A stretch of 22,862 nucleotides of DNA, taken from contig JAZGFI010000075.1 of NCBI GenBank assembly GCA_036479435.1, positions 1 through 22,862 on the forward strand, in the 5' to 3' direction. The translations under genes and the position numbers were made by a program. Of this stretch, positions 1,079 through 19,764 are shown one piece after another. Each line of letters opens with the position of its first letter. The first letter of the stretch is position 1. The stretch comes from Planctomycetota bacterium. Lineage in GTDB: Bacteria; Planctomycetota; GCA-002687715; DRQF01. Under the pieces are notes generated by a model. That model searched no databases. It saw only the letters and a program-made list of their open reading frames with translations, and was not told the DNA's origin.

Positions 1079-2614
1079 TTGGCCACGAGTTTGACGATCC
1101 AGATTCCTTCACCTTTGCTCCGTTACTCGGAGGGTCAAACGAGTCTGGACGTTGAGGCCCAAACCGTGGGGGCGGCCTTGGATGCGCTGTTTGCGGTCTT
1201 TCCGGGCTTGGCGTCGCGCGTTCTCGACAAAAACGGCAACATCCCACCCTACTTGATCCTGTTACACGCTGGTGAGGTGCTGGCGCGAGACGACTTTCGC
1301 GACCATGTCGTCCAAGCGGGTGATTTACTAGACATCATTCCCGCGGTCGAGGGCGGGAACAGCTCCGGCGACGATGTCCGCATGCGTGGATTCAGAAAAC
1401 GAGCCACCGTCGCCGAGGCCCGCAGCGAAGCGATGGCCGGGCTCAGCTGGCGCAGCGAAACATTGGCTATTGCCGAGGCGGCGGGGCGCGTCCTCGCCTC
1501 GGACGTCGCTTCGCAAATCGACGTGCCAACTTTTGACCGTTCCGCCATGGATGGCTTCGCCCTTTGCGGCGAGGACAGTTTTGGCGCCACGCTCTACGAC
1601 CCGGTTCGTCTCGAACTGGTTGGCGAAGTCATGCCGGGGATGGAGAAACTTCCAAGCCTCGCTCGCGGCCAAGCGCTGCGCATCATGACCGGCGCGCCGA
1701 TCCCTCCCGGCGCCGATGCGGTCTTGATGGCGGAGGACGCCAAAGAAGAACAAGGGGCCGTGTTGGTCCAAGCACCCGTGACACCGGGCAAGAACGTCGG
1801 GCGCCGCGGCGAAGACATCTGTGCGGGCGAAACTTTGCTCAGTGCGGGTCGAAAGTTGCGGCCTCAAGATGTCGGGCTCTTGGCGAGTATCGGAGCGGCC
1901 GTAGTTGAGGTGATTGCGAAACCTCGCGCCGCGATTTTGGTGACGGGCAATGAGCTATTGCCCCCAGGTGAAACGCCGGGGCCTGGCCGAGTGGTCGATA
2001 GCAACACGCCGATGTTGCGGGCATTGATGGAGGCCGATGGCGCTGAAGTCGTCTTGGAGTTTCGCCTTGCTGACGAGCCGGACATCATCGCCCGGGCACT
2101 GGTGCGGAGTGAAGTCGAGATTTTGGTCGCGGCGGGGGGCTCATCGGTCGGTCGCGAAGATTGGCTGCCTGTGTTAACCCGTGAGTACGGCGAGCTGCCG
2201 ATCCACGGCATTGCCATGCGGCCTTCTTCTCCGACCGGTATTGGTCGGGTCGATGACAAAAAGGTGTTCTTGTTGCCGGGAAATCCCGTTTCTTGCCTCG
2301 CCGCCTACGACTTTTTCGCTGGGCCGGCGATTCGCTTTCTCAGTGGCCTTGAACCGGGTTGGCCTTACCCTCGCGAGACCCGTCGCTTGGCGAGGCGGGT
2401 TAGTTCGCAAGTGGGGCGCCTCGACTACCTTCGCGTCAAAATCGAAACCGATGGCCGCGTGGTGCCGCTGGCCTTGTCCGGCGCGGCGATCTTGTCGTCG
2501 ACGACTCGCGCCGACGCCTTCGCAATCATCCCCGCTGATTCCGAAGGCTTCGATGAAGGCAAAGAGATCGAGGTCTTTTTCTACGACCGGCGCCACGTGG
2601 ACGGTCGAGCGTGA
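1079..2614 (+). CDS. moeA: MoaD/ThiS ubiquitin-like sulfur carrier fused N-terminally to gephyrin-like molybdopterin molybdo/tungsto-transferase MoeA
   Basis: GAGGTG RBS before TTG. aa1-93 are beta-grasp-like and end GDLLDIIPAVEGG. MoeA motifs follow: DRSAMDGFA, IMTGAPIPPGADAVLMAED, TGNEL, GGSSVG, LPGNPVS. Confidence 0.93.
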   Translation: MATSLTIQIPSPLLRYSEGQTSLDVEAQTVGAALDALFAVFPGLASRVLDKNGNIPPYLILLHAGEVLARDDFRDHVVQAGDLLDIIPAVEGGNSSGDDVRMRGFRKRATVAEARSEAMAGLSWRSETLAIAEAAGRVLASDVASQIDVPTFDRSAMDGFALCGEDSFGATLYDPVRLELVGEVMPGMEKLPSLARGQALRIMTGAPIPPGADAVLMAEDAKEEQGAVLVQAPVTPGKNVGRRGEDICAGETLLSAGRKLRPQDVGLLASIGAAVVEVIAKPRAAILVTGNELLPPGETPGPGRVVDSNTPMLRALMEADGAEVVLEFRLADEPDIIARALVRSEVEILVAAGGSSVGREDWLPVLTREYGELPIHGIAMRPSSPTGIGRVDDKKVFLLPGNPVSCLAAYDFFAGPAIRFLSGLEPGWPYPRETRRLARRVSSQVGRLDYLRVKIETDGRVVPLALSGAAILSSTTRADAFAIIPADSEGFDEGKEIEVFFYDRRHVDGRA

Positions 2615-4596
2615 AACAGCGTCAGTTCTTAGACGTCGTCACGGACGAAGAGGCGCAGCGCCGCATCGCCGAAGTCTTCCAAGGCATGGTGCCCTGCGGT
2701 GAGATGCTGCCCCTCAACGAGTGCTTGGGCCGCGTCTTATTTGAGGACGTAAGCGCCGCGGTCGATGTCCCGGGTTTTGATCGCGCGGACATGGACGGAT
2801 TTGCCCTGCATGCGGTCGACACTTTCGGAGCCGAAGAACTCGCACCGAAGCGCTTGAAGGTTTCGCGCCATCAGATCGCCGCCGGCTCGGCGGATCTGCC
2901 CGCCGACTTCTCCTTAGAACCGGGTGCAGCGATTTCAATCGCAACTGGTGGCACTTTGCCCCGCGGGGCGAACGCCGTCTTGATGATTGAAGACTCCGCG
3001 CCGGTGGTTGACGGTGACAATAGCGGTGACGAGATCGACGTATTTCATCCGGTCGCCCCCGGAGCGAATCTTACGGGGGCCGGCACTGACGTCGGTCGCG
3101 GCGAGATGATCTTGCGTGCGGGCCAAATCCTTGGGTCTCGTGAGACAGCCCTAGCGGCAGCGGTTGGTGCGCATGAGCTGTGTGCTTTTGCCGCGCCTAA
3201 AGTTGCGATCATCTCGACGGGCGATGAATTGCGCCGCCCCGGAGAAGACTTGGGGCCCGGTGAAATCTACGACTCCAATGGCCGCATCCTCGCCGACGCG
3301 GTACGCGAGATGGGCGGCGAAGCCTGTGAACTCGGCATCGTGCCCGATGACGAGAAGAAGCTCAGCGCTTGTCTAAGGGAAGCCCTCCGAGACTCAGACT
3401 TAATCTTGATGTCGGGTGGGACGTCGAAAGGCGCTGGCGACCTCAACTATCGTGTCGTGCGTGCCTTGGCCCAAGAGCTGCCAAACTCGCGAGGCATTGT
3501 CGTTCACGGCGTCGCCTTAAAGCCCGGCAAGCCTCTTTGTGTCGCCGAAGTCGCCGGCCGTCCGCTGGTGATCTTGCCGGGTTTCCCAACCTCGGCGATC
3601 TTCACTTTCCATGAGTTCGTCTCCTCGCACCTTCGATTTGCCGCTGGCCGCCGCGAGCATTCGGCGGAGTACGTCGAAGCCTACGCGCCGCTGCGCCTGC
3701 CCAGCGCGAAAGGGCGAACGGAGTACATGCTGGTCGATCTCGTGCCCGGCGATCAAGGCTTGGCGGCCTATCCTTTGGGCCGCGGTTCCGGCAGTGTCAG
3801 CACTTTTTCGGCGGCCGATGGTTTCATTCGCATTGATCGTCACACTGAGTTCGTAGCGGAAGGCGAGCGCCTTTTGGTGCGACCCTTGGGCGATCAAGTC
3901 CGGCGACCCGACCTCGTCGCCATCGGTAGTCATTGCCTCGGATTGGACTATTTGTTGAGCGTCTTAAGTCGGCGTGGTTACAGCGTGAAGGCCATCAACG
4001 TTGGGTCTCAGGGCGGACTGAACGCGCTCGCGCGCGGCGAAGGCGACCTCGCAGGAACCCACCTTCTGGATGCGACAACCGGGGAGTACAACCGCTCTTT
4101 TCTTCCCGAGAACACCGAGATCCTAGGAGGATGGCGGCGGCGACAAGGTTTGGTATTTCGCCGCGGCGACGCTCGATTTGAAAGTCTCGCCGCCGACCTA
4201 AGCCGACTCGCCGACCTGGTGCGCGAACCCGGCGTGGTGATGGTGAACCGCAATCCGGGCAGTGGCACTCGCGTGTTGATTGATCGTTTTCTTAGCGCGG
4301 GCGCTGAAACTAAAAGCCCGCCCGAGGGCTTTCACGCCCTAGCCCGCAGCCACCACGCCGTGGCTGCCGCCGTGGTCCAAGGTCGGGCAGACTGGGGCAT
4401 AACGCTCCAATCCTTGGCTCAAGAGCAAGGCCTCGAATTCGTCTTTGTGCAAGACGAGATCTTCGAACTCGCCTTTCCCGCGTCGAGGGCCCAGCGCCCA
4501 GCTATCCTGGCGCTGCGCAAGATCTTGGCCGAATCCGAAGTTCAAGCAAAACTAAAAAACCTGCTATACGGAGTCAGACTAAATTCTCCCGCTTAA
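2611..4596 (+). CDS. moeA: MoeA fused to C-terminal PBP (periplasmic-binding-protein-like) domain
   Basis: GTGA overlap with the upstream gene. MoeA motifs DRADMDGFA, STGDEL, SGGTSKG, HGVALKPGKP, LPGFPTSA. PBP motifs GSHCLGLD, VGSQGGL, GTHLLD, NRNPGSGTR. Paired moeA genes are typical of tungsten-AOR loci. Confidence 0.93.
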   Translation: MKQRQFLDVVTDEEAQRRIAEVFQGMVPCGEMLPLNECLGRVLFEDVSAAVDVPGFDRADMDGFALHAVDTFGAEELAPKRLKVSRHQIAAGSADLPADFSLEPGAAISIATGGTLPRGANAVLMIEDSAPVVDGDNSGDEIDVFHPVAPGANLTGAGTDVGRGEMILRAGQILGSRETALAAAVGAHELCAFAAPKVAIISTGDELRRPGEDLGPGEIYDSNGRILADAVREMGGEACELGIVPDDEKKLSACLREALRDSDLILMSGGTSKGAGDLNYRVVRALAQELPNSRGIVVHGVALKPGKPLCVAEVAGRPLVILPGFPTSAIFTFHEFVSSHLRFAAGRREHSAEYVEAYAPLRLPSAKGRTEYMLVDLVPGDQGLAAYPLGRGSGSVSTFSAADGFIRIDRHTEFVAEGERLLVRPLGDQVRRPDLVAIGSHCLGLDYLLSVLSRRGYSVKAINVGSQGGLNALARGEGDLAGTHLLDATTGEYNRSFLPENTEILGGWRRRQGLVFRRGDARFESLAADLSRLADLVREPGVVMVNRNPGSGTRVLIDRFLSAGAETKSPPEGFHALARSHHAVAAAVVQGRADWGITLQSLAQEQGLEFVFVQDEIFELAFPASRAQRPAILALRKILAESEVQAKLKNLLYGVRLNSPA

Positions 4597-4673: not shown

Positions 4674-5579
4674 CTATCTTCTCCCGCCGTCCAGTTTTCC
4701 GTCTGACAACCCGGCGGCATTGCGGACCAATCGCGCGATCGCCGACAGGTCTTCGTCGCCAAATCCTGCATCGATCAGTTCGTCTTCGCTGGTCGCCATT
4801 TGACTCGCGACGGGAAGTTCCACGCCGGTGTCGGCGGCGGCATCTAACGCGATCCTTAGATCTTTTCGGTGGAGGCTGACTCGAAATCCCAAGGGGTATT
4901 GGTTGTCGATCATGTTGCCGGCGCGTTGCTGGAGTACCCAAGAGGCAGCGGCGCCGCCGCCGATCGCCTCTACGACGCGCTCGGGATCAACTCCTAGCTT
5001 GTGGGCCAAGACCATGCCTTCCGCGACGGCTTGGTAGGTGCCTGAGATGACCACCTGGTTGACGGCCTTGGCGACTTGGCCGGCTCCACTGGGGCCAACG
5101 TGCGTGATCGTTGTGCCGACGGCTTCGAGTACGGGGCGGGCGCGTTCAAAGTCGGTTTCCGAGCCACCGCACATAATGGCGAGCGTGGCGTTCTGAGCAC
5201 CTTCTGAACCGCCAGAGACGGGGGCATCAACGAAGGCGATCTGCCGTTTGGCGCAAGTCGCGGCCAATCTTCGAGTCGCGTCGGGGGCCACCGTCGAGCA
5301 ATCGATGATCAGCCCACCGTCGGCGATCCCCGCTAACAGCCCGCGTTCAGCATCGAGCACGACTTCTTCTAAGTCGGGCGTGTCCGAGACGCAGATCAAA
5401 ACGGCATCGCAGATCTTCGCCAGCTCTTTTGGCGACGCGGCGCGTTTCGCGCCGACAGCGGCCAAGGCCTCTTCTCGCTCGCGGGTTCGGTTGTGAACCA
5501 CCAGGTCAAATCCGGACTTCAACAAGTTGTGGGCCATGGGCGTTCCCATGGTCCCAAGTCCTAAGACGCCAATTTTCAC
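4674..5579 (-). CDS. NAD(P)-dependent beta-hydroxyacid dehydrogenase (3-hydroxyisobutyrate DH / tartronate- or succinic-semialdehyde reductase family)
   Basis: GVLGLGTMG Rossmann motif, DAPVSGG, catalytic-Lys region GAGQVAKAVNQ, and F-x6-KDL. Confidence 0.93.
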   Translation of the reverse strand: MKIGVLGLGTMGTPMAHNLLKSGFDLVVHNRTREREEALAAVGAKRAASPKELAKICDAVLICVSDTPDLEEVVLDAERGLLAGIADGGLIIDCSTVAPDATRRLAATCAKRQIAFVDAPVSGGSEGAQNATLAIMCGGSETDFERARPVLEAVGTTITHVGPSGAGQVAKAVNQVVISGTYQAVAEGMVLAHKLGVDPERVVEAIGGGAAASWVLQQRAGNMIDNQYPLGFRVSLHRKDLRIALDAAADTGVELPVASQMATSEDELIDAGFGDEDLSAIARLVRNAAGLSDGKLDGGRR

Positions 5580-6504: not shown

Positions 6505-9102
6505 TCAGTGTTTCTTCAGGACTTGTCTTCGGCGCTTGAAGTCGGCGGCCTCAATCTTGTGCACCACATCGCTAATCCCGTCCTTGGCCTCGACCTTGAT
6601 CTCGAAGGAATCGATCGGAGTCACCCGCCTGGAGTCCGAAGACATCGAGTGAGAAGTTTGCTGCAGGTAACTAAAGCGCAAGAGGTAGCGACCGGCTTCT
6701 GGGAATGATAACTCGGCGGCCCCTTTCTCGTCGAGGACGGCCCTCACTTCGGCTGGTTTCGATTCTGCGCCGCCGAGGAAGGCCGAAAGCGTGATGAAGA
6801 GCGGAGCCTGGGGCCAGTGCTTCGGACCCTTGATCTGAAGGTGGACGCGACAAGGCGGGGCGAGCTTGATGGTCCCCGAGCGCAGCGGACCCGGTTTTCG
6901 GTAGGCCCCTCGCTCATCTGCAGAAACGAAGAGGTCGCTAAGGGGAGAAGCTGCGACCAAGGTCATGACGCCCTTGGCATCGGAGTCCGGAAAGTACCGG
7001 CTCTTTCCCATCTCGGTCGCCTGTACTGTTGCGCCTTCGACAGCGCGGCCTGTGGAATCCACAATCTTGAGCCGGGCCGTCCAGATCCTTGCGCCCAGGG
7101 CTACACGCTGGAGCCGCGAGTCCGTCGATTCTCCCTTGGCGTCAATCTCAATGTCGCTGATCTCAAGAATCGGGGGACTTTTCGATCCCCGATGCTGAAT
7201 GCGAATCGTCGCCAGCCCTGGCCGCAAGCCCGACCAGGCCACGCGGTGTGGGTTCGTCCATTGCCCTCTTTTTTCGGAGTGTGGACCGGCGTCAAAAGGG
7301 TCCCAGGCGGCAGGCACTCCCAGCATCAAGATTTCGATCGCCTTCGGGCCGGGGACTCTTCCGACGAAAGTCATGGCGATCCGGCCTCCCCGCGGCATCG
7401 TCAATCGCAATCCCTCAGTTCCCGGCGCAAGCTCTTCGCTGACGAGCGCGGGGAATCCGGGACGTTCAAAAAAAAGGCGAAAGGGCTCATCGACTACTTG
7501 GCTCAAGAGGCGAAACCTACCCTGTTCGTCAACGCGGGCGGCGATGTCGCTTAGGTCTTCGACGCTTCTTGCTTGACCGAGCGCGACGCGAAGCGTGACG
7601 TTCTGAAGGGCTTGACCCGCATCGTCGACGACCAGTCCTGCCGCTAAGACCGGAAGCTCCTGAAGGACCAAGTCACCGAGGTCGACGCGCGCCGGGAAGG
7701 TGTCGTGCTGCGGCAAAAGGGCCTCCGTACCCCCGCGATGCCCACCGGCGAACCCGGTTTCGATACGCAACGTGGACTGCGCCGCCCGAAGGAGACTGTC
7801 CTCGCAGCCGATTCGGATGAATCCAACAGCATCCGTGCTGCGTATCCCAAGGTCGTGATGGACATCGTGGTTTTTGCCGCCGAGGCCTCGCAAGAGCAAA
7901 TCAGTATGGGCCATGGGCTCGCCCTTGGTATTGAGCACCCGGGCCGTCAGTGTCGATAGCGCTGCACCCAGTTCAAGCTGGTGACGGACCTTGCCTCCAC
8001 TATTCACGGGGCCGTCCAAAACGACGCTGTGGTGTTCACAGCTCTTGTCGGTGGGTCCAACGCATACCACAAATCTCAAGCCCAACGGCAGGTCATCAAA
8101 GCGCACTTCGCGTTGGGGGGTAATGCGCATCCAGGTTGGCCCGTACTCGCTGTTATCTGCAGCAAGAGCGCGCAAAGTAAGAACGACGGTTTTGTCCTTG
8201 GTGTTTTCGGGACCAACCCAACTCAAGATCATGGATGCTCCGCGCGGAAGGCGATGCACGGGAACGGCGTCTTCTGGACGAAGTGGTCGCGCGGTGATCG
8301 GCTGCGGACTGTAGCCCGGGAGCACAATCGAAAATCGTGCATGTGATGACGCGTAGCCGTAGTCCGGTTCGAAGAACCACGCCACTCCATCCTGGTCAGT
8401 TCGCGAGACCATGCGGTCGTAGAATACTCGGGGGTTTAGGTTCGTGGATTGCAGCGTGACGTCCAAACCCTCGCGAGGCTTGCCATCGGCACCTGCAATC
8501 TTGAGCGCATACTGCCGCGACTTGAGCAGTTCGTACTCGACAACCTGTCCAGCATCGTCGTTGAAATAGACCTGTTGCGGGGGCAAATACCCTTCATGCG
8601 CTGTCGCCGCGACTTGGCCTTTGCGCCAAAACCGCGGCAAGGGGCAGTAGCCACGTTCATCCGTCTCGAAGACATCGCCGTACTGAGTGGCCAGGATCAG
8701 AAAGTGGTCGGCCGTGGTCGCTTGATGGTCAAGCGCTTCGCGCGCGGCGCCCGCGTAGGGCAAAAAAGCCACGACCGCTCCGGCGACCCCGCGCTGCCCG
8801 GTGGGATCGAGAATCCTCAATATCGGCCCCCCACGATCCTGAACGACATCAATCCAATCGTCGGGGAACAGCCGCGCGCTGCGGGCGGACTCGAGTTGTC
8901 TGGCACTGAGAGTTCGAGTGCGCCGATGGCCTCGCTCCCCGCTGCGGTCTCGGGGCTTTTCGAATTCATGTTGGTTTTTCGTCTTGGGCGCTAGCCGGTT
9001 TGACGATTCGCTTTCATCATCCGCAGTGATCCACCCAAATAGCCCCAGGCCCCAAAAGGCCAAGCCAATGATGAGCGCGGTGATGAAATGGCGTGCCTGC
9101 AT
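6505..9102 (-). CDS. Membrane-anchored exported protein with repeated carboxypeptidase-regulatory-like beta-sandwich domains; function unknown
   Basis: 865-aa ORF with an N-terminal hydrophobic segment. Recurring G-x-V-x-D-x-x-G-x-P/A...T-D-x-x-G patterns (ARVLNTKGEPM, AGLVVDDAGQAL, KIVDSTGRAVEGATV, TDQDG, TDERG). Confidence 0.75.
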   Translation of the reverse strand: MQARHFITALIIGLAFWGLGLFGWITADDESESSNRLAPKTKNQHEFEKPRDRSGERGHRRTRTLSARQLESARSARLFPDDWIDVVQDRGGPILRILDPTGQRGVAGAVVAFLPYAGAAREALDHQATTADHFLILATQYGDVFETDERGYCPLPRFWRKGQVAATAHEGYLPPQQVYFNDDAGQVVEYELLKSRQYALKIAGADGKPREGLDVTLQSTNLNPRVFYDRMVSRTDQDGVAWFFEPDYGYASSHARFSIVLPGYSPQPITARPLRPEDAVPVHRLPRGASMILSWVGPENTKDKTVVLTLRALAADNSEYGPTWMRITPQREVRFDDLPLGLRFVVCVGPTDKSCEHHSVVLDGPVNSGGKVRHQLELGAALSTLTARVLNTKGEPMAHTDLLLRGLGGKNHDVHHDLGIRSTDAVGFIRIGCEDSLLRAAQSTLRIETGFAGGHRGGTEALLPQHDTFPARVDLGDLVLQELPVLAAGLVVDDAGQALQNVTLRVALGQARSVEDLSDIAARVDEQGRFRLLSQVVDEPFRLFFERPGFPALVSEELAPGTEGLRLTMPRGGRIAMTFVGRVPGPKAIEILMLGVPAAWDPFDAGPHSEKRGQWTNPHRVAWSGLRPGLATIRIQHRGSKSPPILEISDIEIDAKGESTDSRLQRVALGARIWTARLKIVDSTGRAVEGATVQATEMGKSRYFPDSDAKGVMTLVAASPLSDLFVSADERGAYRKPGPLRSGTIKLAPPCRVHLQIKGPKHWPQAPLFITLSAFLGGAESKPAEVRAVLDEKGAAELSFPEAGRYLLRFSYLQQTSHSMSSDSRRVTPIDSFEIKVEAKDGISDVVHKIEAADFKRRRQVLKKH

Positions 9103-13371: not shown

Positions 13372-13950
13372 TTAGAGCGAAAGGCTCGGAACGTCCCAGG
13401 TCTCGGGCAGGCAAATGGGAGAGGCGATGACGACACTAATATCGGGCAAGGCGTCAAGAGCGGCCCTAAGGGCCTCGGCGCGGGCCTCATCGAGGTCGGC
13501 CAGGGGCTCGTCCAAGAGCAGTAGTTCCGGTCGCAACACCAATGCCCTAGCCAGGGCGACGCGCCGGATCTCGCCGCCGCTCAGGGTGCGCGACGAGCGC
13601 CTCAACAGATCTTTCAGCTCAAAGCGTTCGACGGCTTCGTCAATTCGCGGCTGACTCTCATTCGCTCGGATGCCGTGAGCCTTCAAACCGTAGCTGAGAT
13701 TGCTGCGCACATCGCCGCGAAACAAAAAGGGGCTTTGGTGAACAAAAACGCGCGCCTTTTGGTGCGCTTCAATCTTGACTTGACCTTGGGAGGGCACATC
13801 GAGTCCCGCCATCACGCGAAGCAGGGTCGACTTCCCCGAGCCGTTTTGGCCACGGATCAAAAAACGCTGGCCCCGCGCCAAAACAAAAGAGTCGAGTTTG
13901 AGAATCTCGTGGCCGTTGCGAGTCAGGCGAAGGCCGGTAATCTCAATCAT
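13372..13950 (-). CDS. tupC: Tungstate ABC transporter ATP-binding subunit
   Basis: True start is probably ATG 13950 (MIEITG, ATGA overlap with tupB) rather than 14157. Motifs GQNGSGKS, VHQSPFLF, LSGGE, LLLDEP. Follows tupA and tupB. Confidence 0.88.
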   Translation of the reverse strand: MIEITGLRLTRNGHEILKLDSFVLARGQRFLIRGQNGSGKSTLLRVMAGLDVPSQGQVKIEAHQKARVFVHQSPFLFRGDVRSNLSYGLKAHGIRANESQPRIDEAVERFELKDLLRRSSRTLSGGEIRRVALARALVLRPELLLLDEPLADLDEARAEALRAALDALPDISVVIASPICLPETWDVPSLSL

Positions 13951-14648
13951 GATTTCGCCTCCCGGTCGCGCTCGAAGGAAAGCAAAACCAAGATGCTGGT
14001 GACGCCGAGGGAAAGCAGCAGCAACAAAAAGCCCATGGCTAGTCCGCGGCTGTACTCGCCGCGGCTTGACTCTAGGACAATCGAACCCGCCAAGGTACGC
14101 GTACGGCCCGCGATGTTGCCGCCGACCATCACCGCCACGCCGAGTTCCGTCATGCAACGCGCCAGCGCGGTCAAGACGCCGAGCAGAATGCCCGTGCGGG
14201 CTTCCGACAAAAGTGTGAGGGCGTGGCGCAACTTCCCCGCCCCCAAAGTGCGCGCGGTTTCTGAGGCGCGGGGATCCAAAGCGGACACCGCCCCTTGGGT
14301 CAGCGAAAAAGTGATCGGAAGGGCGAGCAAGAACTCGCCCAAGATGATCGCCCAGGGGGTGTAGATCAGCTCCAACCCACCCAAGACTCCGCCGCGAGCA
14401 AAAAAGGAATAGCCGAGGATTCCGATAAAGGCGGTGGGGAAGGCCATGCCGGTCCGACCGAGCAAGATCAAAAGGCGGCGACCGACGAAGCGTTTGGTGG
14501 CGACAAATGTCCCCAGCGGAATACCGACCATCGCGGCCAAAAAGACCGCCGACCCGGAAACGAATAGGGTGCGGCCCGCGGCGTTCATGACCACGGGATC
14601 TTGATCGATGAGAAGCCGGAAAGCCTCGCGAATGCCGTCTGCGAACAT
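13947..14648 (-). CDS. tupB: Tungstate ABC transporter permease
   Basis: Hydrophobic protein with ETARTLGA EAA-loop and the TupB-type ELGVAVMVGGNIAGRTRTL motif. Confidence 0.92.
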   Translation of the reverse strand: MFADGIREAFRLLIDQDPVVMNAAGRTLFVSGSAVFLAAMVGIPLGTFVATKRFVGRRLLILLGRTGMAFPTAFIGILGYSFFARGGVLGGLELIYTPWAIILGEFLLALPITFSLTQGAVSALDPRASETARTLGAGKLRHALTLLSEARTGILLGVLTALARCMTELGVAVMVGGNIAGRTRTLAGSIVLESSRGEYSRGLAMGFLLLLLSLGVTSILVLLSFERDREAKS

Positions 14649-15497
14649 CTATCCGGCCTTCGGCGTCAAGGTCTTAAAGACGCGCACGCCGCCGACTTCG
14701 TAGTTGCGGATGATGTCTTGAGCCTCGGGGCCGATAAGGAACTCGGCAAATTTCTCCGCGAGCTTCACTCCTGCGGCGGGGCGACGATCCGGATTCACGC
14801 GAATGACCGAATAGGGATTGATCAGATTGGCACCGCCGGACACCAACTCAACGAGATCGAGGCGGTTTGCCACCCGGGCGAAGGTGCCGCGGTCGATGAG
14901 CAAGTAACACCTCAGTTCGTGCGCCATTTCCGCGGTGGCCCCCATGCCTCGGCCCGATTCGATGTACTCCGACCAAGGGCTGTAACCATCGACGAGCTTC
15001 CAAAGCTGCGCTTCGCGTTTGTGGGTACCACTGTCGTCGCCACGGCTGATAAAACGCGCACCTTGTTGGCAAATGCGGCGCAGGGCGTCCGCGACCTTCA
15101 TGCCTTTGACGCCCGCCGGGTCGTTCTTCGGACCGGCGATGAGGAAATCGCTTTGCATGACGGCCCGGCGCCCAAGGCCATGCCCGGCCGCCACAAAGGC
15201 TTCTTCGGCTTCGCGAGAGTGAGCGAAAACCGCATCAACGTCGCCGTTAGCGCCGAGCTTCAAGGCAGCCCCGGTGCCCACCGCGAGGACGATCACTTCG
15301 CAGGACTCACTTTTTTCAAAGAGGGGGATGAGTTGGTCGGCGATCCCGGAGTCACGCATCGAGGTGGTGATGGCGATGCGCAGGATCTTGTCATCGGCCC
15401 CGTCCTGGCAGCCCCAAAGGCAGCTCAGAACGAGGCCGACAGCGGCAGCAAAGCCTAAATGCCGGATTTCAAAAGCATCTCGTCGAAGGACTTGCAT
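14649..15497 (-). CDS. tupA: Tungstate-binding lipoprotein of ABC transporter
   Basis: Lipobox LWGC; ITTSMRDSG (TTTS-like), AVGTGAAL, FISRGDDSGTHKRE, GRGMGAT, DRGT, NPYSVI. The start overlaps the aor 3' end by 43 nt and is uncertain. Confidence 0.92.
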   Translation of the reverse strand: MQVLRRDAFEIRHLGFAAAVGLVLSCLWGCQDGADDKILRIAITTSMRDSGIADQLIPLFEKSESCEVIVLAVGTGAALKLGANGDVDAVFAHSREAEEAFVAAGHGLGRRAVMQSDFLIAGPKNDPAGVKGMKVADALRRICQQGARFISRGDDSGTHKREAQLWKLVDGYSPWSEYIESGRGMGATAEMAHELRCYLLIDRGTFARVANRLDLVELVSGGANLINPYSVIRVNPDRRPAAGVKLAEKFAEFLIGPEAQDIIRNYEVGGVRVFKTLTPKAG

Positions 15498-18019
15498 ACC
15501 CGTGAGTGCACCTCTTCGAAGAACTCGACCGTGTTGAAGTGTTCAAGATCAACTTTGTCGTACTTGCGGTGAACTTCAAGGGGCATCCGGTAGTCCTCGG
15601 GGCTAAAGCCCTGAGTCCTTTCCAGTTTAAGACCGCGGAGGAAGCAGCGCTTGACCGTCTCGGTGAGCTGCTCTTCGCTGATCTCAAGGCCGGTCATGAG
15701 CTGGATGGCTTCCGCCATCTTCTCGTTGGGCAGGGCCGCAAACTTGCAGATGCCAATGACGTCGTCGCGCATGATCGAACAGCCGCGCTCAGTGATGGCT
15801 TCAACCCAGTAGTCGGCGCCCGCTTCTTTTTCGAAAACGTAGAGCAAATAGGTCTTCATCGACATGTGCCCGCCGGCCAAGGCCCAGGGATAGCCGGGGT
15901 TGAACTGCGGTAAGTAGGCGGGGAACTCGACGCCCTTGCAGTGCATGGCGTAACCGGTTTCACCGAGCGCTTCCGAAAGACGTTTCACGCCCTGGCCGAG
16001 CAACGGGAGTTTGCCCTTGGCCATTTCGGTGATAGCCCGTTGCGCGCCTTCGTAGTTGCCGTACTCGATGTAGTCCGGGATCAAAGACGGCTCGCCCGCC
16101 TCTTTTTTGCGCTTGTTGTACTCCATGGCGTAAGAGATCGTGACGCCGCAAGAGATGGAATCCATGCCGTAGTCGTCGACCATGTCCACCAAGTGAACGG
16201 CTTGATGGATGTCGAAAATCCCGATGTTCGAAGACATCAAGTTCAAGGGCTCAAAATCGAGCTTCGCGTGGAACTTGCCGGGCTTTACTTTGCCCTTGAC
16301 CTCTGTGCGGTCGTAGACGTTTTTGTGACAGGAAATGCCGCAGGCGTAGCAAGCTTCGTCTTTGACCATCAACTCGCCCGCCGCTTCGACGTTGGCGCGG
16401 TACATCGGCACAGAAACATCGGTGCCGGTGGGGTTGAAGTTGTTTTCAGGCATCGCGTGCAGCGGGTTCAAGGCCGTCATGTTGGCCCAAGTGCCGCCGC
16501 CGCCATCGCCTTTTTTTGCGTCGCGAAAGCGCTGGCTTCCGGGCCCGCGCGCGACTTCCATGTTGATCTCTTTGAGGCCCGCGACTTTGACGCCCGGCTT
16601 GGGGTCTTTCATGTCCGCCACGATGGCGAGCAAGTTTTTGGAACCCATCAAACCGCCCATGCCCCCGCGCCCCGCAAAGCGCGACTTCATGTCGCCACTT
16701 TTGAGCTGGTTGAGGGTAGAGAGGCCGATCGCCGCGAAGCGGACTTCTTCGTAGTTCTCGCCGGCGGTGCCAATCGCCGCGAAGTGAGCATCGGGATACT
16801 GGGTGTAGAGGTGTTGGATCTTTTGATTGATCGTCATTCCCTGCAAGTGATGCGCGGGCTTAAACTGGAACGTCGGTTGGCCGTTGGCTTCGTCGTGAGT
16901 GATGTGCAAGTAGACCGGCATGATGGCCTGGCCCGTGAAAATAACTTCCTCCACCCCGAGGTGCCGAAGCTTGGTGCCGAATTTGCCACTGCCGGTCGAC
17001 CACATCGCCGAGGGCTTGTCACTGAGGGAGGCCTTCAGCGGTGAGTAACCGTGGAAGTAGGTGCGTAGGCCGGTCATGAACTGAGTGCCCGACAAAATGC
17101 CGAGGTTCATGATGAGCGGCGCGGCTTTGTCGTAGGGATCTTCAACCTCGTAGTCTTCGAGAATCTTGAATCCGCGGCCGATGCCGCCCAAGACATCTTC
17201 GTAGTCGGCACACTCGACCGTGTCTCGCTTGACGAAATAGGTGCTGAGGTCGATCCGGTACTGTTTGATGCTGAATTCGCGGGGTGACTTGAGATCAGCC
17301 GCCGCGACCGGAGCGGGAGCGGATTTCTTGGCCGGTGCCGCTTCGGATTTCTTAGCAGGTGTGGCGGCGGGCTTTTTCGCCGGAGCTGCCCCCGGCTTAG
17401 CGGCCGGAGTCGTCTCCGGCTTGGCGGCTGGTTTCGCGGTCGCTTTGTTCGGGGCGGGCTTTTTAGGCTCCGGCTTTTTGACTTCAGGTGTTTTGTCGCT
17501 CGGCTTCTCGACGGCCGCCACCGGCTTTGCCGCCGTCGGGGTCTTTGACGTGCGCTTCGTGGTTTTTCGGTCCTCGGAGTCGCCTGTCGCCGTGGCTGGT
17601 TTCTCAGCGGGCTTCTTCTCCGGGTCCGGGGCCTTTTGCGAAATGATCGTCTTCGGCGGTTCTTCGACCGCTGTTGGCATTCGCTCGGCGCTGGTTTTGG
17701 CGACTTTCTTTTTGGCCACCTTCACGACGACTTCGATTTTGGTTCGACCCATCTTGATGACCAAACCGTTCTTCAATGGATGACGATTGCCTTTCCCGAG
17801 AACCGGGCCTCCGACGATGACCGTCTTGTTGGAGCTGCCGACGTCTTCGATTTCAAGGCCACCGCTTCCCTCCAAAATCACGGCGTGGCATCCGGAAACA
17901 TTCTGGTCATTAACGCAGAGTTGGTTGCTGGGGTCGCGCCCGATGGTGGTGCCAGCTTTGATGGCAACGTTGCGGGGGGCTTGATCGGGTTCGTGGAGGC
18001 GAAAGGTGTATTCAGACAT
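15455..18019 (-). CDS. aor: Tungsten-containing aldehyde:ferredoxin oxidoreductase family enzyme with N-terminal FHA domain and Lys/Pro/Ala-rich linker
   Basis: FHA: TIGRDPSNQL..VSGCHA..IEDVGSSNKT. AOR: AGRGGMGGLMGSKNLLAI, PENNF, CYACGISC, DDYGMDSIS (DxxGxD), KGVEFPAY, GGH, DDVIGICKF (fourth Fe-S Cys). Confidence 0.92.
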   Translation of the reverse strand: MSEYTFRLHEPDQAPRNVAIKAGTTIGRDPSNQLCVNDQNVSGCHAVILEGSGGLEIEDVGSSNKTVIVGGPVLGKGNRHPLKNGLVIKMGRTKIEVVVKVAKKKVAKTSAERMPTAVEEPPKTIISQKAPDPEKKPAEKPATATGDSEDRKTTKRTSKTPTAAKPVAAVEKPSDKTPEVKKPEPKKPAPNKATAKPAAKPETTPAAKPGAAPAKKPAATPAKKSEAAPAKKSAPAPVAAADLKSPREFSIKQYRIDLSTYFVKRDTVECADYEDVLGGIGRGFKILEDYEVEDPYDKAAPLIMNLGILSGTQFMTGLRTYFHGYSPLKASLSDKPSAMWSTGSGKFGTKLRHLGVEEVIFTGQAIMPVYLHITHDEANGQPTFQFKPAHHLQGMTINQKIQHLYTQYPDAHFAAIGTAGENYEEVRFAAIGLSTLNQLKSGDMKSRFAGRGGMGGLMGSKNLLAIVADMKDPKPGVKVAGLKEINMEVARGPGSQRFRDAKKGDGGGGTWANMTALNPLHAMPENNFNPTGTDVSVPMYRANVEAAGELMVKDEACYACGISCHKNVYDRTEVKGKVKPGKFHAKLDFEPLNLMSSNIGIFDIHQAVHLVDMVDDYGMDSISCGVTISYAMEYNKRKKEAGEPSLIPDYIEYGNYEGAQRAITEMAKGKLPLLGQGVKRLSEALGETGYAMHCKGVEFPAYLPQFNPGYPWALAGGHMSMKTYLLYVFEKEAGADYWVEAITERGCSIMRDDVIGICKFAALPNEKMAEAIQLMTGLEISEEQLTETVKRCFLRGLKLERTQGFSPEDYRMPLEVHRKYDKVDLEHFNTVEFFEEVHSRVCKSFDEMLLKSGI
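17290..17720 (-). repeat. Low-complexity PAKK/PAAK-type peptide repeats in the FHA-AOR linker (approximate bounds)
   Basis: KPAAKPETTPAAKPGAAPAKKPAATPAKKSEAAPAKKSAPAP. Confidence 0.85.
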
Positions 18020-18072
18020 CAAAAGTCTCTATCGCTCGGGGTGCGTGCCGGGTTGGATCTGAGGTTGAGGCG

Positions 18073-18109
18073 AAAAACGGCGGCCCCATATCGAAGGGTG
18101 CCGCCGTTT
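18073..18109 (-). terminator. Intrinsic-terminator-like hairpin between the ThDP enzyme gene and aor
   Basis: Minus strand AAACGGCGGC-A-CCC-TTCGATAT-GGG-GCCGCCGTTTTT, starting 5 nt after the stop codon. Confidence 0.6.
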
Positions 18110-18114
18110 GAGAT

Positions 18115-19764
18115 TCAAAGAGTGCAGGTAATGGAGCCGAGGCGAGCCGTCAGCTTCATGTTTTCGCTGTAGTCGATCGGGATCGAGATGATCGCCGGCC
18201 CCTCTTGCTGGAAGGCCTCTTCGAGGGCGGGCAGCAGGTCTTTGGATTTGGTGACATGCTTGCCCCAAGCGCCAAAGCTCTCCGCCAACTTCACGAAGTC
18301 GGGGTTGGTGAAAGCCAGGTCGGAGTGCTTGCCAAAGCTCGCCTGCTGCTTCCATTTGATCAGGCCGTACTCGCAGTCTTCCCAGATCAGCTGGACGATG
18401 TTGAGTTTGCGGCGCACCGCGGTCTCAAGGTCTTGGATGTTCATCATCGTACCGGCATCACCACCCACAGCGAGGATGCGGCGATCGGGAAAGACCAACT
18501 TCGCGCCCATTGCGCCTGGGAAGGCGAAACCCATCGTGCAAAAGCCGTTCGAGATCAGGCAAGTGTTGGGCTCGTCGCACTGGTAGTAGCGGCCGATCCA
18601 CATCTTGTGGGCTCCGACGTCGCTCAAAATGATGTCGTTTGGTCCCAAGACCTGACGGCAATCCCAGAGTGCTTTTTGGGGAGTGATCAAGCCGTCGGTG
18701 TCGGCGTCGGCATGTTCGGCGAAGTCGGCGAGCATTTCCTTGCGCAACTTGGCGTGCACGTTGATGTCGAACAGGGGCTTGTCGGGCATACCCTTGTTGA
18801 GTTCGTAGATCGAATCCGCGATGTCGGCGACCAATTCGACATCCGGGTGATAGAGGCTCTCCACTTCGGACTCTTCGAAGTCAATGTGGATGATCTTCTT
18901 GTCGCGCCCGGTGTTCCAAAACTGCGGGTGGTACTCGACGAGGTCGTAGCCAATGGCAATAACCAAGTCGGCTTTTTCCATTTCGCAAGAAACAAGGTCG
19001 CGAGCCTGTAGGCCCATCGTGAATAAACAGTGCTTGTCATCTCGCGCAATCGCGCCCTTGCCCATGAAGGTGCTGACGACACCGATACCAGATTTCTCGG
19101 CGAAGATCCGAAGCTGCTTTGTGGAGCGCTTGCGAATCGAGCCGTTGCCCGCGAGGATCAAAGGGTGCTTGGCATTTTTGATCAGCTCGAGCGCTTGCTT
19201 GACCGCTTTGTGGTCGGCGCCGGGGCGGCGAACCTTGCGCGGCTCCATCGGGACCAAGTCATCCTTCACTTGCGAGTCGGCAAGGTCTTCGGGAAGCTCG
19301 ATGTGCGTGGCCCCCGGTTTTTCGGCGGTAGCGACTTTGAAAGCCTTGCGCACCACTTCCGGAATGTTCTCCGGTTGGCGAACACTGAAGTTCCACTTGG
19401 TGATCGGCCGGAACATCTCAATGCAGTCCATGTTCTGATGCGATTCCTTGTGCAGTCGATGGGTGTCGGCTTGTCCGGTGAGGACGACCATGGGCGCGCG
19501 GTCCATGTTGCCGTCGGCAACGCCCGTCACCAAGTTGGTGGCGCCTGGCCCGAGTGTCGCCAAGCAAACGCCGGGCTTGCCCGTCAAACGCCCGTAGACG
19601 TCGGCCATAAACGCGGCGGCTTGTTCGTGGCGGCAGAGAACGAAGTCGATGTCCGATTCCATCAAGGAAATCATCACATCGGCGTTCTCTTCACCCGGGA
19701 TGCCAAAGATGTACTCGACCCCTTCGGTCTCTAAGCACTTAACGAACAGATCTGATGCCTTCAT
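18115..19764 (-). CDS. ThDP-dependent enzyme, acetolactate-synthase-large-subunit-like; resembles the cyanobacterial 2-oxoglutarate decarboxylase subfamily
   Basis: FGIPGEEN, RHEQAAAFMADVYGRLTGK, TLGPGATN, ESHQ, TFMGKG, SDVGAHKMW, NTCLISNGF, ThDP motif GDAG..., DYSEN. GAGAGG RBS. No ALS small-subunit gene is adjacent. Confidence 0.92.
   Translation of the reverse strand: MKASDLFVKCLETEGVEYIFGIPGEENADVMISLMESDIDFVLCRHEQAAAFMADVYGRLTGKPGVCLATLGPGATNLVTGVADGNMDRAPMVVLTGQADTHRLHKESHQNMDCIEMFRPITKWNFSVRQPENIPEVVRKAFKVATAEKPGATHIELPEDLADSQVKDDLVPMEPRKVRRPGADHKAVKQALELIKNAKHPLILAGNGSIRKRSTKQLRIFAEKSGIGVVSTFMGKGAIARDDKHCLFTMGLQARDLVSCEMEKADLVIAIGYDLVEYHPQFWNTGRDKKIIHIDFEESEVESLYHPDVELVADIADSIYELNKGMPDKPLFDINVHAKLRKEMLADFAEHADADTDGLITPQKALWDCRQVLGPNDIILSDVGAHKMWIGRYYQCDEPNTCLISNGFCTMGFAFPGAMGAKLVFPDRRILAVGGDAGTMMNIQDLETAVRRKLNIVQLIWEDCEYGLIKWKQQASFGKHSDLAFTNPDFVKLAESFGAWGKHVTKSKDLLPALEEAFQQEGPAIISIPIDYSENMKLTARLGSITCTL

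Follow-up and report, generated by a model that had tools for sequence, protein, structure and literature searches.

A KGD-like decarboxylase gene beside a planctomycete-specific aldehyde ferredoxin oxidoreductase: a candidate tungsten-dependent, CoA-free route from a 2-oxoacid to the next shorter acid

A 22,862-nt contig of a Planctomycetota bacterium (GenBank assembly GCA_036479435.1, contig JAZGFI010000075.1; this whole stretch is called the window here) carries, side by side on its minus strand, a gene labeled as acetolactate synthase (ALS) and a gene for an aldehyde ferredoxin oxidoreductase (AOR) with an N-terminal FHA domain. The locus raises the question of whether the product of the first gene, a thiamine diphosphate (ThDP) enzyme referred to as P0001, makes an aldehyde that the AOR oxidizes in the place of an NAD(P)-dependent aldehyde dehydrogenase (ALDH). 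We posit, at a probability of about one in two, that the two genes encode a two-step, CoA-free route from a 2-oxoacid, with 2-oxoglutarate the likeliest one, to the acid one carbon shorter, and that the AOR replaces the NAD(P) ALDH in this lineage. Both open reading frames (ORFs) and their arrangement are as proposed in an earlier, sequence-only reading of this DNA: the ALS-like gene lies directly upstream of aor, and a Pfam scan of 18 large window ORFs found no ALS small subunit, ilvC/D or budA. In the following, G000 is the genome of the window (5.47 Mb in 299 contigs, 92% complete; the window is its contig C75), other G numbers are sampled genomes and L numbers are loci. The closest protein relatives of the window genes carry the name Planctomycetota. 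Positions are given in Table 1.

P0001 contains the three domains of ThDP enzymes (Pfam TPP_enzyme_N/M/C, E 8e-39, 2e-31 and 2e-44) and the fold residues E47, G435-D436-A437-G438 and D463, where the middle glycine of the GDG motif is alanine, as in many members of subfamily B2 (see below). Its 120 listed database matches are 64-84% identical and come from several phyla, and every one named by its source is labeled 'acetolactate synthase large subunit'. P0001 reaches 755 bits on the NCBIfam model of that name (NF006187). On the AlsS models it scores 516.6 (NF006378, cut-off 510) and 477.5 (TIGR02418, below the cut-off of 551), and on the model for the large subunit of acetohydroxyacid synthase (AHAS; TIGR00118) 421.8, under the cut-off of 538. 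Among control genomes searched with NF006187 (E <= 1e-150), B. subtilis and M. acetivorans have a match and S. elongatus, which we take to be a strain without the 2-oxoglutarate decarboxylase bypass, has none; because B. subtilis passes, the cut-off of this model admits AlsS too.

Better suited references were five named cyanobacterial genomes (G201-G205, reached via a 16S primer scan), each of which holds exactly one NF006187 member (872-884 bits), besides an IlvB-like protein. These NF006187 members hold 16-17 of the 17 docking and mutagenesis residues of the Microcystis enzyme MaKGD at a uniform offset of 3, and we take them as orthologues of the characterized KGD. P0001 is 50-52% identical to them, 35-37% to AlsS and about 31% to IlvB/IlvG; the AlsS references are annotated genes of plasmid records adjoining budA, and a search for AlsS in five Firmicutes genomes from the primer scan yielded none above the cut-off. 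The MaKGD study names Q254, V382, A384, H385, K386, A408, M410, Y465, L467, K471 and Y531 as pocket residues; this list comes from docking and not from a crystal structure, and the docking model assigns K386 and K471 to 2-oxoglutarate (PMC10418658). With alignment columns anchored on the five cyanobacterial orthologues, P0001 retains 15 of the 17 residues, the exceptions being A408 (Cys) and G436 (Ala). Both lysines are present as K387 and K472, at columns occupied by Y/H and Q in AlsS and by Q and W in IlvB; at the active-site columns with residues typical of AlsS, P0001 shows Q, A, K, C, L, K against F, S, Y/H, Q, M, Q in AlsS. The motifs that had first drawn attention to the KGD family are also in place (VGAHK at 383, EDCEYGLIKWK at 462, DYSEN at 531).

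The phylogeny (61 rows, quick IQ-TREE, LG+C20) branches off IlvB, then AlsS, and then a KGD-like superclade of 51 rows (SH-aLRT 85). The superclade is divided into clade A, composed of planctomycetes only, B1 (support 99), which holds the cyanobacteria, and B2 (support 98), which holds P0001. An approximately unbiased (AU) test rejected a single clade of B2 and AlsS (log-likelihood difference 23.9, p 0.00165), the group having been named after the tree was seen. Judged by these comparisons, P0001 is most likely a KGD/OgdA-like decarboxylase and not an acetolactate synthase. The suggestion that it belongs to the cyanobacterial 2-oxoglutarate decarboxylase subfamily is therefore borne out as to its KGD/OgdA-like, non-ALS nature (identity, pocket, AU test), but has to be corrected as to the subfamily, which is the sister B2.

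A true acetolactate synthase, either catabolic and AlsS-like or serving as the only AHAS for branched-chain amino acids, would fit the score just over the NF006378 cut-off, the passing of NF006187 by B. subtilis, and the genome search of G000, in which canonical ilvB and ilvN were not found although ilvC and ilvD are present. However, the ilvC of G000 is cut by a contig end, and in G119 ilvB stands directly downstream of ilvC, so that the canonical ilvB of G000 may be merely unassembled. Moreover, ilvB, ilvN and ilvC are all absent from eight of ten B2-holding genomes (G122, G176, G068, G083, G187, G089, G113, G098). Together with the lower identity to annotated AlsS than to the KGD orthologues, the rejection by the AU test, the replacement of typical AlsS/AHAS residues and the lack of budA nearby in the window, this makes an acetolactate synthase highly improbable. 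As an observation in its own right, one of the eight genomes without ilvB, ilvN and ilvC is 100% complete in 2 contigs, and these planctomycetes possibly cannot synthesize branched-chain amino acids.

Relatives of P0001 are commonly encoded next to an ALDH. Among 29 other planctomycete loci of the ThDP family, inspected over 6 kb in both directions, 15 have a co-directional ALDH gene within 1 kb and none has an AOR gene. In three of the five cyanobacteria a gene whose best-fitting model is that of NADP-dependent succinic-semialdehyde dehydrogenase (SSADH) lies directly upstream of the KGD orthologue, and plasmid-borne members adjoin an ALDH in Vibrio tubiashii, Leisingera and the haloarchaeon Halorarius, where the neighbor is annotated as NAD-dependent SSADH. 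As ALDH genes adjoin its members, the ThDP family appears to produce an aldehyde. The SSADH model PRK09406 fits the ALDH partners of cyanobacterial, haloarchaeal and some clade-A members. A plasmid of Sulfitobacter sp. S190 (L252:3630-6650) has an NADP-specific gdhA that precedes a B2 ThDP gene by 21 nt, with three aminotransferase genes flanking, a context that favors 2-oxoglutarate, or another 2-oxoacid derived from amino acids, as the substrate. For P0001, 2-oxoglutarate or a similar 2-oxoacid is most likely, in view of the pocket and of these gene neighborhoods.

The AOR of the window comprises AFOR_N (residues 255-470, E 6e-37) and AFOR_C (509-818, E 2e-41) behind its FHA domain. C558, C561, C565 and E591 align to the solved enzyme 1aor and are invariant, together with H719 and C759, in 17 relatives; the Asp-rich pterin motifs are conserved as well. 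C759 and H719 presumably correspond to the fourth cysteine ligand and the catalytic histidine of 1aor. It is the sole AOR of G000, and the ThDP and AOR genes are single-copy in genomes of about 5 Mb. Orthologues occur in 11 of 200 other sampled planctomycete genomes at 532-1005 bits, every other planctomycete AOR scoring <= 105 bits. The subfamily has 1,370 relatives in the protein database at E <= 1e-60, and among the 120 matches listed all those with an organism name are Planctomycetota. Membership in AOR sensu stricto, FOR, GAPOR, WOR4/5, BamB or YdhV was considered and rejected, with no curated model or solved chain close: the best solved chain is 1aor (phmmer E 1e-28, about 104 bits; the best solved AORs range from E 1e-24 to 1e-29), and the best curated model, the YdhV-type NF007354, gives 76.6 against a cut-off of 868. 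The protein looks functional, and it looks tungsten-linked because tupABC adjoins it (with Tup scores mostly below curated cut-offs). The commonest neighbors of AOR orthologues are cofactor genes, namely MoaD-like genes in 19 of 80 metagenome loci, plus MoeA, Tup and ThiI.

Comparison across genomes indicates that this AOR takes the position that an ALDH has in relatives. A B2 ThDP gene adjoins AOR in three of the 12 AOR genomes, G000, G122 and G083, and hence in two of the 11 besides G000. G122, which is of the same family as G000, has a ThDP-AOR spacer of 13 nt and an FHA domain, while in G083 the two genes are divergently oriented; a few neighbor assignments at the AOR loci of these genomes may be wrong, since in GC-rich loci the ORFs were picked by a choice weighted by third-position GC content (GC3), not by a gene caller. 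The adjacency recurs in nine of 80 metagenome loci, and in three of 24 among those with >= 2.5 kb on both sides. Five arrangements are seen in the metagenome loci (ThDP gene before FHA-AOR, ThDP gene before AOR, divergent, AOR followed by a moaD-like gene and then the ThDP gene, and convergent), and the AOR-adjacent ThDP genes span three subclades of B2. The ThDP gene of G065, itself paired with an ALDH, shares 78% identity with the AOR-adjacent gene of L264 and 72% with that of L277. The gene pair, whose conservation the sequence-only reading had proposed to examine, thus recurs in a minority of the AOR loci.

The distributions of the two oxidizing enzymes are complementary. The partner-ALDH type is present in one of seven B2-holding genomes with AOR and in 12 of 13 without (Fisher p 0.0012), or, counted by family, in 1/4 against 8/8 (p 0.018), p-values that overstate the case since related genomes are not independent. 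The ThDP family itself occurs in eight of the 12 AOR genomes versus 24 of 189 others. In G000 the usual partner-ALDH type was not found at E <= 1e-70, and the four other ALDH genes of this genome are at best 26-33% identical to partner ALDHs. The idea of an AOR instead of an NAD(P) aldehyde dehydrogenase is borne out in this respect, and a replacement of the usual ALDH by AOR as the probable oxidizer of the ThDP product is well supported by comparison.

We propose the following sequence of events. The ThDP enzyme would decarboxylate a 2-oxoacid with a distal anionic group, most likely 2-oxoglutarate, which would give succinic semialdehyde and CO2. The AOR, with a tungsten-pterin and a [4Fe-4S] cluster, would then oxidize the aldehyde to succinate and hand two low-potential electrons to a ferredoxin-type acceptor. 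The tupABC genes downstream and the two nearby moeA genes might supply the tungsten cofactor. The route could also be imagined in reverse, the AOR reducing a carboxylic acid with reduced ferredoxin and the ThDP enzyme using the aldehyde as acceptor for carboligation (acyloin formation). AORs are described as reversible in vitro and in acid-reducing anaerobes (PMC10816221). ALS-like ThDP enzymes can ligate aldehydes. In relatives, however, the position of the AOR is held by NAD(P) ALDHs, which run towards the acid under physiological conditions, and the pocket, unlike that of AlsS/AHAS, belongs to a decarboxylase and has dicarboxylate lysines, so we consider the reverse direction very unlikely.

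Several results weigh against the proposed oxidative route from 2-oxoglutarate to succinate, and some of them concern its substrate. P0001 stands in B2, sister to the clade of characterized cyanobacterial enzymes and not inside it, and all B2 members have Cys at the position of MaKGD Ala408. The ALDHs paired with B2 members best match the 'lactaldehyde dehydrogenase' model (346-459 bits, below the cut-off) and not the SSADH model; as they are not of the Sad/GabD type, 2-oxoglutarate and succinic semialdehyde are indirectly deduced for B2, and the aldehyde could differ from succinic semialdehyde. The same logic of decarboxylase and AOR might accordingly serve oxaloacetate, 3-sulfopyruvate, hydroxypyruvate or 2-oxoadipate, in which case there would be no route from 2-oxoglutarate to succinate. 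Matches of B2 partner ALDHs to the lactaldehyde, sulfoacetaldehyde and phosphonoacetaldehyde dehydrogenase models would agree with this, as would the cysteine throughout B2 and the lack of anticorrelation between the ThDP family and sucA across the phylum (see below). Yet every one of these ALDH model matches is below its curated cut-off, and the 'lactaldehyde-like' ALDH also partners clade A and B1 members, so that the ALDH type is independent of the ThDP clade. In addition, 15 of 17 MaKGD pocket residues including both 2-oxoglutarate lysines are retained, and gdhA lies directly upstream of the Sulfitobacter B2 member. On balance we rate another 2-oxoacid as rather unlikely.

Other unfavorable results concern the link between the two genes. 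AOR orthologues are without a ThDP neighbor in nine of 11 genomes, in 71 of 80 metagenome loci and in 21 of 24 when only loci flanked by >= 2.5 kb in both directions are counted; the ThDP family was not found in four of the 12 AOR genomes; and the cluster showed no ferredoxin gene. The spacer of the window contains, directly after the ThDP stop codon, a hairpin (minimum free energy -25.7 kcal/mol, z = -4.6, matched by 0 of 200 shuffles) that is followed by a U-run and was missed by a consensus terminator scan with a loop limit of 8, and the ThDP and AOR genes may on this account not be co-transcribed in the window. Read in this way, the AOR might be a general aldehyde scavenger that is part of a tungsten-cofactor island, while the ThDP enzyme might use an unlinked dehydrogenase, for which the four other ALDH genes of G000 could be candidates. 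A prevalence of cofactor genes around AORs is a known theme (PMC1779556). Such unlinked pathways are hard to reconcile with a pair that is found in four or more gene orders and across three ThDP subclades, with the spacers of only 13 nt in G122 and L308, from which the hairpin is absent, with the complementarity of AOR and the usual partner ALDH among B2 holders, and with the distance of the G000 ALDHs from the partner type. We therefore regard neighbors without a shared pathway as unlikely, and retain the two-step route as the working model.

Whether this route is a 'bypass', as the sequence-only reading had called it, is a separate matter. A search of G000 for sucAB/korAB, which that reading had suggested as a check, found sucA (2-oxoglutarate dehydrogenase E1) and one 2-oxoacid:ferredoxin oxidoreductase; this too counts against the proposal, as the ThDP-AOR route is then not needed to close the cycle. 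In the phylum sample, sucA occurs in 11 of 32 genomes with the ThDP family and in 63 of 169 others (p 0.84), and a role of the family in filling in for a missing 2-oxoglutarate dehydrogenase was rejected in the absence of any anticorrelation. The term is too strong on both grounds. Among AOR-holding genomes sucA is present in one of 12 versus 73 of 189 others (p 0.06). G000 also encodes a second, very divergent ThDP enzyme (C174:43308-44909, plus strand) 2.7 kb upstream of sucA (C174:47606-50368). This enzyme scores 292 bits with NF006187 and 207 with TIGR00118, and in the tree its terminal branch measures 5 changes per site.

The FHA domain shows G-R, S-x-x-H and N, which we take to be the phosphothreonine-binding residues, and is followed by a Thr-rich linker. 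It might, speculatively, confer phosphothreonine-dependent control or localization on the AOR. The FHA-AOR fusion is limited to the closest relatives, namely G000, G122, L308 and eight of the 120 database proteins listed (65-69% identity); relatives have 773-1056 aa, the length varying in the linker. The fusion stands behind the ThDP gene in each of the three verified cases, although L308 is identical to G122 and so not independent, and six ThDP/AOR database pairs that agree in the length of the longest contig suggest further co-located pairs. The earlier reading had drawn a parallel to the actinobacterial FHA proteins GarA and OdhI, which regulate the 2-oxoglutarate node. The window FHA is likewise tied to an enzyme with a possible role downstream of 2-oxoglutarate and has a Thr-rich disordered segment beside it. 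However, it is fused to the AOR and not a free small regulator, it is restricted to one planctomycete lineage, a Pfam scan of large window ORFs found no kinase gene, and a PDB search matched no GarA/OdhI chain at E <= 1e-3, its FHA hits being weak (E about 1e-3) and confined to other proteins. The parallel thereby reduces to a conceptual analogy.

A second kind of fusion was noted in the ThDP enzyme. B2 proteins of 675-678 aa that carry a cyclic-nucleotide-binding domain at the C-terminus (Pfam cNMP_binding, E 8e-20) occur in the planctomycete families f53 and f57 and on several metagenome contigs. None of the seven genes has an adjacent ALDH; four have AOR adjacent, and in the genomes of the other three AOR is located elsewhere. 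One may envisage a tungsten-dependent, CoA-free route from 2-oxoglutarate to succinate that yields reduced ferredoxin instead of NAD(P)H and is switched through the FHA-AOR by Ser/Thr-kinase signaling in one lineage and through the cNMP-fused decarboxylase in another, with GarA/OdhI-like control built into the enzymes themselves. We consider this extended scheme doubtful.

The closest known counterpart is the cyanobacterial bypass of 2-oxoglutarate decarboxylase and SSADH, with Sll1981 of Synechocystis and KGD of Microcystis as examples (PMC5160925, PMC10418658). P0001 resembles these as an ALS-like ThDP enzyme of about 550 aa without small subunit, with the identity and pocket given above and an aldehyde-oxidizing enzyme encoded next door. 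It differs in belonging to B2 with Cys at Ala408, in a tungsten-pterin AOR replacing the NAD(P) SSADH, in the sucA of its host, and in the presence of tupABC and of FHA on the AOR. An OgdA-SsaD bypass of Synechococcus sp. PCC 7002 was reportedly described by Zhang and Bryant in 2011. Debnar-Daumler et al. are said to have reported in 2014 that phenylpyruvate decarboxylase acts with a tungsten AOR, and with phenylacetaldehyde dehydrogenase, in the anaerobic phenylalanine degradation of Aromatoleum aromaticum. There, too, the aldehyde from a ThDP 2-oxoacid decarboxylase is reportedly oxidized by a tungsten AOR and an NAD-dependent ALDH can do the same step, but the decarboxylase is said to be of the indolepyruvate/phenylpyruvate family and not ALS/KGD-like, the AOR to be canonical with extra subunits, and the substrate to be aromatic. 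In Pyrococcus furiosus, AOR is a proposed oxidizer of 2-keto-acid-derived aldehydes, whose source there is side reactions of ferredoxin oxidoreductases rather than a ThDP decarboxylase dedicated to the task. The window AOR shares with it the AFOR_N and AFOR_C fold, the CxxCxxxC motif with a fourth Cys, and equivalents of the catalytic Glu and His, and differs by its membership in a distant subfamily whose named listed members are all from Planctomycetota. Lastly, neighborhoods of AOR with MoaD and MoeB/MoeA for the tungsten cofactor are set out by Iyer, Burroughs and Aravind 2006 (PMC1779556). The window and many orthologous loci likewise have MoaD-like and MoeA genes near AOR; in the window, MoaD is fused to MoeA, and a Tup transporter and the ThDP decarboxylase join the cluster.

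The module of decarboxylase and aldehyde dehydrogenase is accordingly already known from cyanobacteria. A ThDP decarboxylase feeding a tungsten AOR is reportedly known from Aromatoleum, with unrelated enzymes. What appears to be new here is the pairing of a KGD-like decarboxylase with an AOR subfamily specific to planctomycetes, the evidence for a swap of AOR and ALDH at the same position, and the FHA and cNMP fusions; our literature search, partly judged on titles and the starts of abstracts, found no paper linking this AOR subfamily with the KGD-like ThDP family. For annotation, it follows that a large conserved family labeled 'acetolactate synthase large subunit' very probably consists of decarboxylases. 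If the AOR truly stands in for the dehydrogenase, aldehyde oxidation would release its electrons at the potential of ferredoxin and not as NAD(P)H. The 2-oxoglutarate branch would then have different energetics in these organisms, most of which lack sucA. The uncharacterized planctomycete AOR subfamily would gain a candidate physiological substrate and a tungsten requirement, and the FHA and cNMP fusions offer entry points to the regulation of the route.

Table 1. Features of the window in the order of the minus-strand cluster (P0001, 92-nt spacer, FHA-linker-AOR, TupA-like, TupB-like, ABC-ATPase), other window genes, and related genes at other loci.
Feature	Position	Strand	Basis and remarks
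P0001, putative ThDP-dependent 2-oxoacid decarboxylase, KGD/OgdA superclade, subfamily B2, 549 aa	18115..19764	-	Pfam, NCBIfam, identity, pocket residues, tree; database label 'acetolactate synthase large subunit'
Hairpin and U-run inside the 92-nt ThDP-AOR spacer	18071..18109	-	Folding; terminator- or attenuator-like
FHA-linker-AOR fusion, 855 aa	15455..18022	-	ORF and Pfam; database form begins at ATG 18019
FHA domain, N-terminus of AOR protein, residues 25-92	17747..17950	-	Pfam FHA, E 4.8e-13
Low-complexity linker, Pro/Ala/Lys/Thr-rich, residues about 93-250 (~150 aa)	17273..17746	-	Translation; without Pfam match
AOR catalytic part, residues 251-855, planctomycete-specific subfamily	15455..17272	-	Pfam AFOR_N and AFOR_C
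TupA-like tungstate-binding protein	14649..15497	-	NCBIfam NF041772 182 bits (below cut-off 400); Pfam PBP_like_2
TupB-like ABC permease	13947..14648	-	NF038017 174 bits (over cut-off); TupB model NF041773 153 bits (below cut-off 320)
ABC ATPase, TupC/WtpC-like	13372..14157	-	Pfam ABC_tran; WtpC 104, TupC 94 bits, both below cut-offs; true start probably downstream of 14157
MoeA with N-terminal ThiS/MoaD-like domain	1079..2614	+	Pfam MoeA_N, MoCF_biosynth, MoeA_C, ThiS; SAMP1-like match
MoeA with C-terminal PBP-like (oxyanion-binding) domain	2611..4596	+	NCBIfam NF011068 669 bits (over cut-off); Pfam PBP_like
cNMP-fused B2 ThDP genes	L037:9889-11958	+	Also L100, L102, L104, L265, L275, L311
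ThiI genes	L035:5719-7944, L036:13183-14412, L038:1880-3097, L040:9975-11171, L043:9450-11408
CarboxypepD_reg-repeat protein of the window	6505-9102	-
CarboxypepD_reg-repeat proteins at other loci	L036:10819-13080, L037:2702-6082, L039:10028-13303, L041:10436-13138		Repeats fused to sigma-70 domain in L041

Some further observations were made in the neighborhoods of AOR orthologues. A gene for the sulfur-transfer protein ThiI adjoins the AOR orthologue in all five genomes of family f57, and the protein may deliver sulfur for the pterin cofactor. The AOR orthologue of G064 (L043:7842-9440) is cut after about residue 719, its C-terminal piece lies about 2 Mb away (C4:2017721-2018161), and a DDE transposase adjoins the truncated gene, which is probably broken. 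The two moeA genes of the window overlap, and the pair is kept beside AOR orthologues in L035, L036, L277, L289, L334 and L335.

A gene for a beta-hydroxyacid dehydrogenase is found in the same strand block in G000 (window 4674-5579, minus strand) and in G122 (L034:3899-4759, minus strand), the two being 65% identical. The gene is of the tartronate-semialdehyde reductase / 3-hydroxyisobutyrate dehydrogenase family, below curated cut-offs, and succinic semialdehyde reductases are among the members of this family. Finally, very large proteins with CarboxypepD_reg repeats recur near AOR orthologues across several unrelated planctomycete families.

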